Positions 30,163-54,305 of a stretch of 64,000 bases of DNA are shown here, in pieces. The DNA comes from Anolis carolinensis (taxonomy: Eukaryota). The stretch is taken from contig NC_085841.1 of NCBI RefSeq assembly GCF_035594765.1, positions 173,833,574 to 173,897,573 on the forward strand, written 5' to 3'. How positions within the stretch are numbered: the stretch's first letter is position 1; each line of letters starts with the position of its first letter. The notes beneath the pieces were generated by a model. It was not told the DNA's origin, searched no databases, and was given only the letters and a program-made list of their open reading frames with translations. The position numbers and the translations under genes are program-made.

Positions 30163-31278
30163 AAAAAAGCTGAAAACTGGCTTTTGAAATTCTACAATCA
30201 ATGCTTGGCACACAAACAGATTCCCAGAGCATGGAGGAAAACTAAGATCATTGCCATTTTAAAACCTGGTAAAGATGCCCCCAATGCCAGGAACTACCGA
30301 CCAATCTCCCTCTTATGTCATCTATATAAAGTCTATGAGAGGATGCTATTAAATCGACTAGGACCTGTTATTGAACCCAAGCTTATTGCACAACAAGCAG
30401 GGAAAAACTATACAGGTCAAATTCTTCATCTGACTGAGCATATCAATGAAGGCTATGAGAAAGGCTGCATTACGGGAACAGTTTTTGTGGACCTTATGGC
30501 AGCCTATGACATGGTGCAACATAGAAAAATGCTGCATAAAGTCTACCATATCACCTGGGACTTTGACTTTACAAAAACTGTCCAGACCCTCCTAGAAAAC
30601 CGCAGCTTCTATGTGGAGTTTCAGGGCTGGAAAAGCAGATGGAGGAGGCCAAAGAATGATTACCCCAAGGCAGCGTTCTTGCACCGACCTTATTTAACAT
30701 CTTCACGAATCATCAGCCACTACCACCACTTACAAAGAACTTTATATATGCTGATGACCTTGGCCTTACAACACAAGTGAAAGATTTTGAAACAGTTGAA
30801 AACCATCTCACTAATGTCTTGAAAGATCTCTCCAGCTACTACAAAGAGAACCACCTGAAGCCTAACCCTGCCAAGACACAAGTGTGTGCTTTCCACCTAC
30901 ATAACCGTGAAGCCAACAGGAAACTGAAAGTTACTTGGGAAGGCCAAGAGCTCGAACACTGTTTCCATCCTAAATATCTTGGTGTCACCTTAGATCGAAC
31001 ACTAACATATAGGAAACACTGCATGAACACCAAGCACAAAGTAGCTGCACGTAACAACATCCTGCGGAAACTGACTGGCAGCGCATGGGGTGCAGACCTA
31101 CAAGTAATAAGAACTTCAGCCCTGGCCTTGTCTTTCTCAACTGCTGAGTACGCCTGTCCTGTCTGGCACAAGTCTGCACATGTGAAGCAGGTGGACATAG
31201 CACTAAACGAAACATGCAGAATAATCACAGGATGCCTTAAACCTACATCTGTTGATAAACTCTACAAGTTAGCTGGCA
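30163..31278 (+). pseudogene. Vingi/Ingi (I-group) LINE reverse-transcriptase fragment, frameshifted
   Basis: KPGK...NYRPISLLCHLYKVYERMLLNRL; FVDLMAAYDMV; out-of-frame FIYADDL at about 30741-30761; KYLGVTLDRTLTY...STAEYACPVW. Small deletion and a frameshift; truncated at both ends. Confidence 0.9.
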
Positions 31279-33606
31279 TTAACATAGAAGAGAAATGCTA
31301 TGATTGTCATGTGTGATTTAAATTTTTTAGTGTCATTACCTGTAGCAACAGGAGATGCAACTAAAAAGTGCTTGACACCAACATTTCTAGGATGACTTTA
31401 CTCCTTCCACCTTACAGACTTAGTGATTTGGATTATTTATCAACCTTTGTAAATTATACTATGTCGAATGTTCTTTTGAACCAAGCTGGTGATGTATATA
31501 ATTTTTTTAAAAAATTTTTTTCCAGGTATGTGAGTGTGTATAAAATCATAAATATTTTACAAATCTAGTATTTCACATTAGTGGTAAGGTTCAGCTGGAA
31601 GTAAAGTATTACCTTTGTTGAAGGTAATACTGTACATTCTCAAAATATATTAAAATATATGAGCAAAGGTGCTTTATCATGTGTTTGAGAATGGTGATGG
31701 AACCCCTCTATCAATATCCTCACTGGTCTTAGCATTTTCACTTTTATAGTATCTCTTCATCCAACCCTGAAGTCTTCTGCAAAGTATCCACAGATTTTCA
31801 GAAGCAGATTTCTAGGTGACACAGAAGGCTGTTATCAAGAGGGCAGGCATGGTTCAGAGAGGCCTTTTGTATAAGTATTGCTCTGTGTACAGCTCTTGGG
31901 ATCCCTCCCACCAAAGAAAAAAAAATAGTAAACAGAATACAGTTGTGGGCTGTACATGTGGGACAAGCCTAGAACCTTCAGCAAGGCAGAATAACCGGTC
32001 TTCATTTTGCTTATCTTATAATATCTCCATTTGGGTTGCCTCCATCACCTTCAGCACTATTATCATAAGGATGTTGGTTTTTCATATCTTTTTTAGTATC
32101 TGTATGAAAAATAGAATAACACATAATCTCATGATAGTAATAGATCATTACCTTCCTCCCCTTCCGTCTCATTTTCTTGAGTGACATATTCTGAATATTT
32201 CAGATCATAGCTGGAAATGGGTGGAATCTTTTCTTGTGGATACTTTTCTATTTTGCTTTAAAATATTTTTATTCCAAATTTGGTATATTTCCAAAACCAA
32301 ATAATAGAGATTAAAGCGTAATAATTTGTGGAAAGGTTTATTTCATAAGATACAACTGTCTGATTATGCCGAATTTTCAGCCAAGAATTAAAGGAGGTTT
32401 GCAGTTCCAACCAAATATAGCATTTTTCTTATTTTGTTTTTAATGCCTCCTCTTGGTTGATGAGACATTGTTTATGAAGTGTGCTTAAAAGCAGTTGCTG
32501 AGAATTAACACGGAGATGCATTTACAGCTAATTAACCTATTCTCAAAGAAAGCAACTGGGAGATGGCTGATTAATGTTTCAGGCTTGAGCTACGCACACG
32601 TACACGCACTCCTGAAATGTAGGCAAAACTTCATTCTGGAACCCAAGAGACCTGTGTGTGACACAAGTTGGAGCCTGAGTGCAGCCTGCTCTCCACAGGA
32701 ACTAATTTTGAAACACCAGAATGCTGTGGATTGTCTGTGAAAACACGGCAGAAGAAACTCAACACAGAACAGAAGGCAATGCTTTCCTTAGGAAGAATGC
32801 TGATAAAATTTTAATGAAGTAACATGTTGCCATGGGGATTTGTTGCTATTCATTAATTCATTGTGCTTCAGCCTCTATAGTTTTGCTGAAGCTGAGTGAC
32901 AAATTGTCAAGAAGCAGTTTGCGGAGGCTTAAAGTTTACTCATTGATAGTCTAACTTTTCTGCAAATTGCACAGAGGGTGTTGTATTGGGATAAACAACA
33001 CTGGGATTATTGTGTATGTGTATACACATAGACATAACACAATTTTATATGTATAAACTGTGAGAAGTAGACAACGTATGCATTTATTCTGCCATTCCTA
33101 ATAGTTTCAACAGTGATTTATCTCCTAATCTTTTCATTTCTTGGCCAAATATTGTGAATCTGGCTGTCTTGAGCTTCTCACCTCTCGGAAGTCAGGGGCA
33201 CATAATATTAATTTCAAACTTTCTTCAGTTTCTTTAGGAAGCTCGGGTGCTAGTGAGAGGAAAACAAAGCATAAGCCAAAATCCGGTACTATTTTCTTTT
33301 GCTGCAAACATGGCTTCACAATTCTGAGTCTTGGTTTACATGAGCACAGCAACATACACAGCACGCTGACCTTGACCATCTTATTATGTGCCATGTTTTT
33401 GTTTCCCAGGGCAGAAAGCATCCAATGTTCCTTTTCATTGCAACTCGTGATCAGAGTCAGGGGGTCCTATATTTCCTTGTCTTGACTGTGAACTGAAACT
33501 AATATATGGATGATGCAAGGTATGGGAGGAAATGACTGAAGGGGGAATGATAGGAACAGAGCAAAGTAATTATGCCAATCATTTTGTAGAACCTCGAGGA
33601 GGCATG

Positions 33607-50379: not shown

Positions 50380-50465
50380 AAGCCACACATGCATAGTCCT
50401 TGGAAAGAGAGTGTGTACATGGTGTGCAGGCCCAGAAAGCACGCATGCCTGCCAGTTTCTGCGGC

Positions 50466-51439
50466 TGTGATGACTCATGGGCCTTGTAGTCCTGCTCAGG
50501 ACATTGTAATTCCTGATGAGGAGGAAAACTTGGGTTTTTTACCTTCCCAGTCAGAACTGGATTCCTCTCAGCCAGATCTTTCCCAGGCAGATCTGGGAAC
50601 CTTGCACCTGCAAGAAAGTTGTCTCCCAGAAGTATGTCAAACAACCCCAGAGCCTACTTCTCCCGTGTTCTTGCGCCGGGAGTTTTGTAAACAACAGAGA
50701 AGTTTGGAATCAGCTTCGCGCAGGAGTGCGAGGATTGCAGCTAAGAATGTGGCCAATTAAGACTGCTTCTCGTGAGAATCTTTGGGGAGTCTCACATCTG
50801 GTCTCAGACTTTAGCTTTCGGTTCTGATTCCCAGAGAACTGCTTCGGCGGGAAAGTTAGACTCTATTTAGGTGTTTTACCCGCGTAGTAACTTCGCGGAG
50901 TCAATTCGTCAGCCTACGGAGCGAGTTGTGTCTGGACAGCGCGCTCCGATTCAAGCCTCGCTCCTGCTCAAGCCTTGCCTTGCTATCCAGCCTTCGCCTT
51001 GCTTCCCAGCCTTTGTTTATCTACGGACTTTGCCTTGTTTCCCAGGACCAATCCTTGCCTTGTTCCACGGATTTTACCAAGTTATTCCACGGACCTTGTT
51101 CTTGTTCTTAGTTACCTTGTTCCACGTTTTAAGCCTTGTTTCAAGTATCAAGTTATTTCCTAGCCTTGCTCAAGTTTATGGACTAAAGGACCTTGTCATC
51201 TCCCCTCACTTTGCTTGGCAAAGTGAGTGTTTCGGTTATTGGATTACAACTTTGGACCTTAATATTTCATATTGGACATTATTTCTTTGGACTAATTTTG
51301 ACCTTTCCTGAAAGGTCTGCTTCTGGACTATCTTTTACATTTGCTTTTACTAACCTTATATATTCCTTCAATAAAGATATTAGTTAGATTCTGGCCTCTG
51401 TGTTTGGTTATTGGTGCCTTTGCAACCTGGGTCGTGACA
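50466..51439 (+). mobile_element. Young Gypsy-type solo LTR
   Basis: TGTGATGAC...GTCGTGACA inverted ends; exact TSD gcggc; CpG-rich; AATAAA at about 51370. Confidence 0.92.
50467..50760 (+). CDS. LTR U3-encoded 97-codon frame, putative Pol/integrase C-terminal tail ending in RRSARIAAK
   Basis: Open from LTR base 2 to a stop upstream of the TATA region; acidic linker followed by a basic motif. Confidence 0.5.
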   Translation: MMTHGPCSPAQDIVIPDEEENLGFLPSQSELDSSQPDLSQADLGTLHLQESCLPEVCQTTPEPTSPVFLRREFCKQQRSLESASRRSARIAAKNVAN

Positions 51440-51789
51440 GCGGCCAAGTTGTCACAATACAGACCCCTCTTAAAGAGCCACACACAATAAGTAAAGTTAA
51501 CAAATGTTTATTAAATAATGTTTTGAACTCAGAAACACTTAACTTCAGTGTTTCAACCAAAAGGAAATGTATTTGCTTCAAGAAACGGCACTAAGCAGGA
51601 ACAGAAAGATAACCCAGATTATCTATCTTGATAATCTGGTTCAAATGCAACCAAAAGGTTCACTGGAACAAGCGCCACGCTGTGCTGTGGCACAGAGAGT
51701 CAGGGAAGAGCCAAACACTCTCAAATAAAGAGTGTAAAATGATACCGTTGTCAAAAGCCAAAAGGGGAGCCAAAAACGCCAAGCTAGGA

Positions 51790-52220
51790 GCAAACTCTGT
51801 TGTTGTCAGGAAGCAGACCGGATTCAGGAGCCAGTGGAAGCCAGAAACACCAAACCAGAAATGCCAAGTCGGAATCGTCAAGCCAGGAGCAAAACGCTGT
51901 TGTCAGGAGCCAAACTGGATGCAGGAGCCAGAGAAAGCCAGGAACGCCAAGCCAGGAACGCCAAGCCAGAAACACCAAGCCAGAAACGCCAAGCCAGGAA
52001 CGCCAAGCCAGGAACGCCAAGCCAGAAACGCCAAGCCAGAAACGCCAAGCCAGAAACGCCAAGTCAGGAACACCAAAGCAGAAACTAACGCTGTCGTCAG
52101 GAGCTAAACTGGATTCAGGAGCCAGAGGAAGCCAGGAACGCCAAACCAGAAACGCCAAGTCAGGAACGCCAAAGAAGAAAAGAACACTGCCGTCAGGAGT
52201 CAATCCGGATTCAGGAACAT
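51790..52220. repeat. Minisatellite inside the LTR (14-bp CCAGRAACGCCAAG units within larger repeated modules)
   Basis: About ten 14-bp units at 51938-52070 and 3-4 repeats of a ctgtYgtcaggag...ggattcagga module. Confidence 0.9.
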
Positions 52221-52328
52221 GAAGCTGTACAGTCAGGACCCAAGGAGAACAGGCAGCGACAAAGCAATGTCCCAAAAACGACACCTTGCCTACTGCAAGG
52301 GATCTTCACTTTCCATTCCACTTTTAAC

Positions 52329-52907
52329 TTACACCTCGGAGTTTGACGATGATGAGGGCTCCGCCCTGTCATAATTATCCACAGCTGATCTTGATCTCAT
52401 ATGTGAACCTCTCCCATCCACCCACCAATCACTCCATCTTTGTTCAAGACTTAGATCTCCCCATGTCCCTGGTGTACCAGTAGTTTGCCAGTCTCCCGAT
52501 GCACCCTCAGAAACTGGTGCTGCACACACATTTACTTGAGTCCAACTTGCAGCTTCTTCCATCCCACTCTCAGACCCATCATCCCCAGAAAAACCCTCAA
52601 ACGTTTCATCTTCCATGGGAGCAGTAAGTATATCACGAATCTTCTTTCTTTCCCTTTCCTCATCTGACTCTTGCTCCCGAGTTGACCTCTTAGTTCCTCT
52701 ACTTTCTGTTAATCCTTCATCTTCCTCCATTGAGTCCTCTTCACTAGAGAAGCCTTCAAATGTCTCATCCTCAGTAGAAGCCATAAGTATTTCCCAAACC
52801 CACTTTACTTGTTGTTCCTCATCAAACACCTGCTCAACATTATCCCTTTTCCTCCTACTAGCAATTTTACCAGTAGTACCAGAACTGCCCCTTGGCGCAA
52901 CTACAAC
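52329..52907 (-). CDS. LTR U3-encoded 192-codon frame with two EDETFEGF motifs, putative Pol/integrase C-terminal tail
   Basis: Open from LTR base 2; the duplicated motif differs only at synonymous positions; stop lies beside the TATA-like TTAAAAG. Confidence 0.6.
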   Translation of the reverse strand, partial: VVVAPRGSSGTTGKIASRRKRDNVEQVFDEEQQVKWVWEILMASTEDETFEGFSSEEDSMEEDEGLTESRGTKRSTREQESDEERERKKIRDILTAPMEDETFEGFSGDDGSESGMEEAASWTQVNVCAAPVSEGASGDWQTTGTPGTWGDLSLEQRWSDWWVDGRGSHMRSRSAVDNYDRAEPSSSSNSEV

Positions 52908-54305
52908 ACAAGTACCTTCCCTAGAGTAAGAAATTGTTACTCTAGAGAAGTTGCTCTGCTGCAGGTGACACTGGCAGGCACCCACCCATTTTCTCCTAGG
53001 CTACACCAGGTAAGGAAGAGCGATGTCCTCCTGGAAGAGGAGAGTAGTTTTCAGAGAATGAGACTTTATTTTTTGTGTGTTGGGGGATTGATAAAAATTA
53101 TTAAACTTTGATGCCAAAAAGTAGACTTGGAGCCGGGATTGGCTCCTACTTGCTTTCATTTCAAGCTGATTTTTGTACCAGGAGGGGGTTCCCGTTACAT
53201 CCTCCTGAAGTACTGAAAAAAATGAAGGAAATGAGAGAAATGGATTCCGCACACAACTCTATTTACAACTGTTCCTTCAATATCTCACCTTTAGGAAATT
53301 CCCATGCACAATCCTTTTGAGCATTTCTGAAGTTGGTATTTTCCTAAGTTTATTGGAATAAGTGGTTTTTTTTATTACCAGAGTGTGCTCCTGACTATGT
53401 TTGGCTTACTTTTTCCATTATTTCCTAAGAGACATAGGTACTCCTACCAAAAAATCCTAATGTTGCCAACCCACTGAGTTGATCAAATCCAACATTGCCA
53501 ACACTGCTAAGGCCTGAACCCAGTCTCTTCCTGGACCTGAATGCTCTCCTGAGAGTGAAGTATTATCAAAAAAGGCTGTATTTATTCTGAATTCAAGAGC
53601 AATCATGCACTCAGTATGTCCAGACAAGGCAGACTACAAACAATGTGAACTGTACTAAGCAACAGAGAACTGGTAACAGGCATGTGTGTATTTAAGAGCA
53701 GCAGCAGCATCTACTGTGTTGTTTCCTTCTCTTGGTCCTGCGCACCAGGCCTAGTATCCCTTATTAATGGAAATTCCTAGAATTTAAGCTATTTCTGAGT
53801 AATAGAACAAGCAGTGTGTCTGACGGGATGTGTTTAGGCCAAAGAAGAGGTCCTGCCTCTGTGTTGCAGATTGAAAGACTGAGCAAAAAGCACATTCAAT
53901 CACACAGTATACAGTACTTCTTGAAGAGAGCACAGTGTGACAGAGGTGTGAGAAAGAAGTCTCTGGGTTTGAGGCCAGTGCCAGCTGGACATTATGGAGT
54001 ACCTTCAAGCAAAATGGGGCCTTTGCTCTTCCCACACACACTATCTGTGTGTGTGGGGGGGGGGGGTTGATGAAGGATGGAAGGATAAGGGAGCAGGAAT
54101 AGAAGCAACTTTCTCTTACTTTCATCAATCACTTGTTTGTCCATCTAGGAGTAAAATAAGAGGGAAAGCAAGGAGGCAGTAAAGTCCTCTTATTACCTCA
54201 TGGATTCCAGCAAGTGAGTAATAATTCTGGCATTAGATGCCAACACTGATAAAGCCTAAACCTTCCTGAATGCTCTCCTGGGGATGAAGCATTGTGTGAA
54301 AATGT

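Follow-up and report, generated by a model that had tools for sequence, protein, structure and literature searches.

An HMGN-like motif at the LTR-encoded C-terminus of an Anolis chromovirus integrase is a candidate nucleosome anchor

The sequence RRSARIAAK, encoded in a solo long terminal repeat (LTR) of Anolis carolinensis, was found to close the C-terminal tail of the integrase in full-length copies of a young Gypsy chromovirus family, and comparison of these copies indicated that selection acts on the motif peptide, not on the U3 DNA that encodes it. By analogy with known nucleosome-binding proteins, we consider it probable that the motif is an HMGN-like arginine anchor that, together with the chromodomain of the same protein, tethers the integration complex to nucleosomes. 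The LTR lies in a stretch of 64,000 nucleotides (the window), whose features are collected in Table 1.

Table 1. Positions and strands of the features located in the window.
Feature	Position	Strand	Remarks
Start of 5′ LTR of a full-length element of a sister subfamily	1..46	-	extends past the window
Left target-site duplication GCGGC	50461..50465	+
Solo LTR, 974 bp, young Anolis Gypsy chromovirus family	50466..51439	+	TG...CA ends; target-site duplication on both flanks
96-codon frame, LTR-encoded C-terminal tail of Pol/integrase in full-length copies	50470..50760	+
Conserved acidic block DEEENLGF	50515..50538	+	18 divergent copies
Second conserved block SPVFLRR	50659..50679	+	13 residues ahead of motif
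HMGN-like motif RRSARIAAK, candidate arginine anchor	50719..50745	+
TATA-like box, ~30 nt ahead of putative transcription start	50863..50869	+	putative function
Complement of the family's primer-binding site, 10 nt	50895..50904	+	marks putative RNA 5′ end
AATAAA polyadenylation signal	51370..51375	+
Right target-site duplication GCGGC	51440..51444	+
Second solo LTR, 1459 bp, target-site duplication CAAGT	51450-52908	-	abuts the first LTR's target-site duplication
192-codon acidic frame in second LTR	52329-52907	-
EDETFEGF, two copies	52749-52772 and 52590-52613	-	different codons

Translation confirmed that the motif ends a frame of 97 codons (96 residues and a stop), as a sequence-only reading of this DNA had stated, running from an ATG at 50470, five bases into the LTR, to a TAA at 50758–50760. 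U3 occurs only at the 3′ end of the RNA of an LTR element. LTR position 430 (window position 50895) is complementary to the family's primer-binding site over 10 nt, and this complement, together with the TATA-like box at 50863, places the frame in U3, given the putative transcription start. Over its first 334 bp, the LTR was 99.7–100% identical to its 40 best genome matches, many of which formed pairs spaced 5449 bp apart; the window LTR differed at only 1–4 positions from same-length LTRs of other copies. The 5′ and 3′ LTRs were identical in all three full-length copies examined, and the lack of any difference within the pairs indicates that the family is very young. The solo LTR itself is likely a by-product that encodes no protein here, since it is without pol and its frame lies upstream of the putative start site. 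The LTR of the element cut at positions 1–46, a copy that the sequence-only reading had singled out for comparison, showed ~93% DNA identity to the solo LTR, and that element carried a 1261-codon open frame with the motif unchanged.

The origin of the frame became clear from the full-length copy L031, in which a pol frame of 1261 codons (2180..5965) overlaps gag (1194–2225) in the -1 frame and encodes protease-like, RT, RNase H, integrase zinc finger, rve, SH3, and Chromo domains, the last matched at 37 bits against a cut-off of 25.1. A slippery-site pattern was not found at the gag–pol overlap, so it is from the -1 overlap that we infer a frameshift. The chromodomain of the Anolis chromovirus was most like those of HP1 proteins, and the L031 pol frame was free of stops through the chromodomain and the polypurine tract into the 3′ LTR, with the motif at its end. 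Among 11 loci with an LTR after the polypurine tract (taken from L001–L028; L029 and L030 failed to match the search string), ten were open for at least 500 codons upstream, and the remaining one for 159. Since pol runs stop-free into the 3′ LTR in full-length copies, the 96 codons constitute the C-terminal tail of the integrase, and a stand-alone, LTR-initiated U3 ORF was rejected; the location in U3 and the length proposed by the sequence-only reading held, whereas the frame proved to be the end of Pol and not a separate gene. The entire extension after the chromodomain comprises 120 residues, of which 96 come from the 3′ LTR.

By structure, with the pol order taken from L031 and the window holding the LTR only, the Anolis element is a Tf1/Sushi-type chromovirus. 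Like the vertebrate chromoviruses of that Ty3/Gypsy group, it has gag, a PR-RT-RH-IN-chromodomain order, a self-priming site, as described for the group in part of PMC6317226, and 5-bp target-site duplications; an env-like frame was not found in the Anolis element, as in the Tf1/Sushi group. Unlike that group, it carries the 120-residue post-chromodomain extension ending in the motif.

The tail is sharply divided in charge, with 12 D/E and no K/R in the first 66 residues and eight K/R in the last 30. No match was obtained within the tail in Pfam, and no usable match in the ESM Atlas. A structure prediction of the chromodomain plus tail was of low confidence (mean pLDDT 52, with the chromodomain not folded); in this model, the spacer scored below 50, and the motif closed a weakly predicted 28-residue helix. 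Two further blocks were conserved among 18 divergent copies: DEEENLGF, in which N20 and F23 are invariant and D16, E17, and G22 nearly so, and SPVFLRR, in which S, P, F, and R are invariant and whose spacing to the motif is 13 residues in 51 of 52 copies. Blocks of the DEEENLGF type end in N-L/M/F-G-F, and Crotalus tails contain an acidic run ending in FEGP at a like place; the block is possibly a degenerate FxGF-type site. The pattern RRSxR[IL] was seen at one of the window's 127,996 six-frame positions, and shuffling the tail residues 200,000 times produced it in 54 cases; conservation across copies is stronger evidence against chance than such frequency counts.

This conservation was evaluated from a chromodomain search of the genome, which returned 150 places, of which 90, plus L031, were read: 30 supplied and 60 hand-picked from the other 120, leaning to long open frames. 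Six loci lacked the element-type chromodomain pattern and one locus gave two rows, leaving 86 rows. Of these, 65 belonged to the motif-bearing clade and the other 21 to a second Anolis clade of chromoviruses, in which pol generally stops within ~15 codons and has almost no tail. The tail reached at least 95 codons in 55 of the 65 clade rows, and 52 of the 65 3′ ends closed an open tail with R-R/W-S-x-R/C-I/L-A; the 13 rows left out had the motif damaged or in another frame (10) or absent (3). The absence from the family that would have spoken against the sequence-only reading was thus not seen. Tail length ranged from 107 to 120 residues, and the motif stood four residues ahead of the stop in 51 of the 52 copies.

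In the 18 copies less than 88% alike, mean pairwise protein identity was 0.82 in the motif, between the 0.93 of the chromodomain and the 0.61 of the LTR spacer. The dN/dS value was 0.07 in the motif, 0.09 in the chromodomain, and 0.33 in the spacer, the motif figure being rough because synonymous sites there are near saturation. The motif ranked first in protein identity among 70 well-covered nine-codon windows of the LTR frame, whereas its DNA identity was 0.71, against 0.83–0.86 at the LTR start. By parsimony, 26 of 99 codon changes in the motif altered the amino acid, compared with 289 of 535 in the spacer. The R, R, S, and R of the motif were kept in 52, 49, 52, and 51 of 52 copies, in a set filtered for the motif, and CpG decay would produce exceptions such as the three W and one C. 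The three arginines were encoded by three, five, and five different codons from both families, the serine by AGT, AGC, and TCT, again from both families, and the stop by TAA, TAG, and TGA in 27, 24, and 1 copies. Lysine was found at the three arginines in none of the 52 copies, with AGA or AGG in 30 and 40 copies at two of these positions, and position 9 was K in 28 copies and R in 24. The copies were picked by the motif pattern, which somewhat inflates the conservation; the nine codons tested, however, had been set in advance by the sequence-only reading. The highest protein identity coinciding with a lower DNA identity, the switches between codon families, and the use of three stop codons together indicate selection on the motif peptide and not on U3 DNA.

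Outside the A. carolinensis copies, homology searches and a profile search yielded 295 proteins, of which 278 not known as Anolis carry a chromodomain; 175 of these have at least 40 residues after it, and many of the 278 are gene-model chimeras or cellular proteins. The closest named proteins to the tail were A. carolinensis entries (P0042, 98% over the tail), and a tail-only profile search gave 12 matches, to Anolis proteins only, so public Anolis entries already include the tail, unannotated. Two Anolis gene models ending in the motif tail, P0043 (a cation-transporting ATPase) and P0044 (an RT-domain protein), are likely annotation chimeras, or else exonised LTRs giving host proteins the motif. 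Elements of Rhineura, Vipera, Crotalus, Podarcis, and Salvator shared the chromodomain, the polypurine-tract residues, and the acidic stretch, together with a basic end in those that are complete; their ends are basic runs, with near-matches to the motif at most. Near-matches at other places were noted in P0198, P0066 (Salvator), and P0201, including RQSSRL exactly where the LTR-encoded part of P0198 begins and RYSLR near the end of the acidic tail of P0201. Since RRSxR[LIVM] was present in one of the 278 non-Anolis proteins, since the squamate tails held near-matches only, and since the second Anolis clade is almost tailless, the motif is dispensable for chromoviruses in general.

The single exception, P0219, is a distant chromovirus integrase end on an ENA contig that finishes RRSARIAARV, ten residues into an LTR-like end and without an acidic spacer. 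It has a basic triplet 11–12 residues upstream of the motif, a spacing of 12 compared with 13 in Anolis. The chance expectation for this match was 0.4 for a loose pattern and 2e-5 for a tight Anolis-type pattern, the pattern having been chosen afterwards. In a tree of integrase ends, P0219 fell outside the Anolis clade and clustered with frog elements, at a support of 86/89 that is below the tool's mark; because backbone support is weak, the data are consistent with shared ancestry and with convergence alike. A different basic sequence, RGRPR, was found in 38 of the 278 non-Anolis tails, many named fish entries among them, and the basic run at the end of Rhineura P0062 contains RGRP. Fish chromovirus tails (P0007–P0032 and others) bear RGRPR after the chromodomain and frequently close with S-P-x-Y/F once the frame has run a few dozen residues into the LTR, a further case of a conserved integrase end encoded by an LTR.

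The HMGN-like motifs of HMGN (RRSARLSA), Dsup (RRSSRLTS), Dot5 (RRSARIAT), and APC3 (PRRSSRL) share RRSxR and a hydrophobic residue. The lizard motif is identical to that of Dot5 at seven of eight residues and to the HMGN core at six of eight, including all of RRSAR; the same residues are invariant, the motif varies at positions where HMGN-like motifs vary, and it likewise lies in a low-complexity tail. Passages of PMC12487698 describe cryo-EM structures in which HMGN2 via RRSAR and Dsup via RRSSR bind the nucleosome acidic patch, with the last arginine anchored in H2A E61/D90/E92, and the kept R, R, S, and R of the lizard motif correspond to the contact residues of those structures. The same passages report that serine phosphorylation was modelled to repel patch binding and that AlphaFold 3 failed on HMGN2. 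Binding by yeast Dot5 is described in part of PMC13347269 as needing the three arginines and the acidic patch, and an excerpt of PMC11445581 describes the same mode of binding for APC3. Unlike these proteins, the lizard protein is a retrotransposon integrase whose motif, an anchor candidate only, is LTR-encoded and at the extreme C-terminus, and whereas HMGNs are small stand-alone proteins, the lizard frame is fused to Pol. The description of the motif as a near copy of the HMGN core was therefore borne out for the residues and not for descent: Pfam HMG14_17 gave no match in the tail at E up to 10, and a DNA comparison with three host HMGN-like loci gave one 21-nt match of chance level, away from the motif, so that capture from a host HMGN gene was unsupported.

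In the mechanism we propose, the genomic RNA, with U3 at its 3′ end, would be translated as Gag-Pol to the stop at 50758–50760, and the protease would free an integrase in which the chromodomain is still followed by ~85 flexible acidic residues and the basic segment at the terminus. The chromodomain, ~105 residues upstream of the motif, would read a methylated H3 tail, and the motif would dock on the H2A-H2B acidic patch, its third arginine occupying the pocket of H2A E61/D90/E92 as it does in HMGN2 and Dsup. Such a two-point nucleosome contact would raise integration efficiency, and phosphorylation of the invariant serine could switch it off, as proposed for HMGN. The sequence-only reading had suggested a tether for the integration complex, an idea that gains much support from the position of the motif at the integrase C-terminus and from its protein-level selection, whereas the solo LTR on which it was noticed likely encodes nothing. 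Several points weigh against an anchor: the motif is short, its arginine-specific conservation would equally fit binding in the DNA minor groove, it stands at the end of a weakly predicted 28-residue helix, while the modelled HMGN and Dsup peptides are short stretches lying across H2A, and most chromoviruses lack it. The fixed 13-residue spacing to the upstream basic pair, moreover, suits a longer unit, and this conserved block would also fit a bipartite import signal or a DNA-binding helix.

A basic end that grips nucleic acid (DNA of the target or a linker, or cDNA or RNA of the element itself) would be the lizard counterpart of the fish RGRPR stretch, which resembles an AT-hook. The frequency of RGRPR among non-Anolis tails, the RGRP of Rhineura, the predicted basic helix, and an arginine specificity fitting the minor groove all agree with such a grip, yet it leaves unexplained the invariant serine, the free fourth position, and I/L-A-A, a pattern common to HMGN, Dsup, Dot5, and APC3, and sits poorly with the exact recurrence of the motif in P0219; we regard it as fairly unlikely. 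The motif could also be the second half of a bipartite nuclear-import signal consisting of the upstream R-R/K, 13 residues, and RRSAR. Classical signals of this kind have two basic clusters about 10–12 residues apart, and the major site of importin-alpha needs a lysine. The constancy of the spacing and the basic triplet of P0219 suit an import signal, and the C-terminal bipartite signal of the Ty1 integrase, described in part of 10.1101/2019.12.18.879569, is a precedent; nevertheless, the lack of lysine at the three arginines in all 52 copies weakens this alternative, which the sequence-only reading had raised, and import would not fix S, I/L, and A. In part of 10.1101/2024.07.11.603080, moreover, a plant CMT2 construct without its RRSxR repeats is described as keeping its nuclear-localization signal, and we consider this explanation unlikely.

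The invariant serine after two arginines and the strongly acidic spacer in the same chain would suit a site controlling Pol/integrase activity, be it a kinase target, a degron, or a latch pairing with the spacer. P0219, which has the motif without any acidic spacer, argues against such a site, as does the usual acceptance of lysine by basophilic kinases. The destabilising N-terminus of CMT2 is where its RRSxR repeats sit, according to part of 10.1101/2024.07.11.603080, which would favor regulation; we nonetheless judge this account quite improbable, and phosphorylation of the motif serine can be compatible with an anchor. Finally, the motif could be a side effect of a U3 element acting at the DNA level, or of chance. 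Its location in U3, ~120 nt upstream of the TATA-like box, agrees with this, but the codon-family switches, the three stop codons, and a DNA identity below that of the LTR start where protein identity is highest largely refute this explanation, which we find scarcely credible.

The LTR adjoining the first one in the window is unrelated in sequence, and the two insertions stand back to back with only two 5-bp duplications between them (51440–51449), a junction that is a possible insertion hot spot. Its acidic frame continues the integrase frame of the chromodomain-less relatives L166 and L168, which have the same polypurine tract, and at least one acidic FxGF was kept in 17 of 17 loci checked. 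Part of PMC9987994 describes FxGF with an acidic linker and a helix as the way in which partners bind LEDGF/HRP2; by analogy, this family possibly encodes a LEDGF-recruiting retrotransposon integrase. A 14-bp tandem array lies inside the second LTR (51893–52180), and broken reverse-transcriptase-like frames of a non-LTR element, its class judged by eye, were seen at 30343–31316.

A polyprotein frame that enters the 3′ LTR, as in the Anolis element, has been described in part of PMC3059260 for the plant CRM group A, in which it encodes the targeting end; there, a CR motif replaces the chromodomain, whereas the Anolis element has kept the chromodomain and added a different motif. According to passages of the acidic-patch review PMC9040877, foamy virus Gag, KSHV LANA, CMV IE1, and probably MLV p12 are acidic-patch tethers, and the arginine anchor of foamy virus shapes integration; those passages name no transposon. 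The lizard candidate resembles these anchors as a means by which a genetic parasite reaches chromatin, and differs in being on the integrase, whereas the viral tethers are on Gag products or DNA-virus proteins. Full-text searches of literature outside subscription journals, repeat databases, and supplements, judged by titles and abstracts among the matches listed, found no report of an HMGN-like motif on a retrotransposon integrase or of the Anolis tail.

More broadly, and only tentatively, the U3 of the vertebrate Gypsy 3′ LTR may serve as a rapidly evolving module through which the integrase acquires chromatin motifs that mimic those of the host: an HMGN-type acidic-patch anchor in the Anolis clade and a frog-like lineage, RGRPR in fish, and, in the neighbouring family without a chromodomain, tandem acidic FxGF of the LEDGF/HRP2-binding type. 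The Anolis integrase would then be a two-point nucleosome reader, combining a chromodomain with an arginine anchor. Beyond the chromodomain, little is known of the means by which LTR retrotransposons of vertebrates find and select chromatin. The genome's own copies provide a natural mutational scan of the motif. If the anchor reading is true, a selfish element joins the short list of HMGN-like motifs, LTR sequence would be serving both as a promoter region and as an evolving protein tail, and acidic-patch mimicry, known from viral Gag and proteins of DNA viruses, would also be found on the integrase of a transposon.
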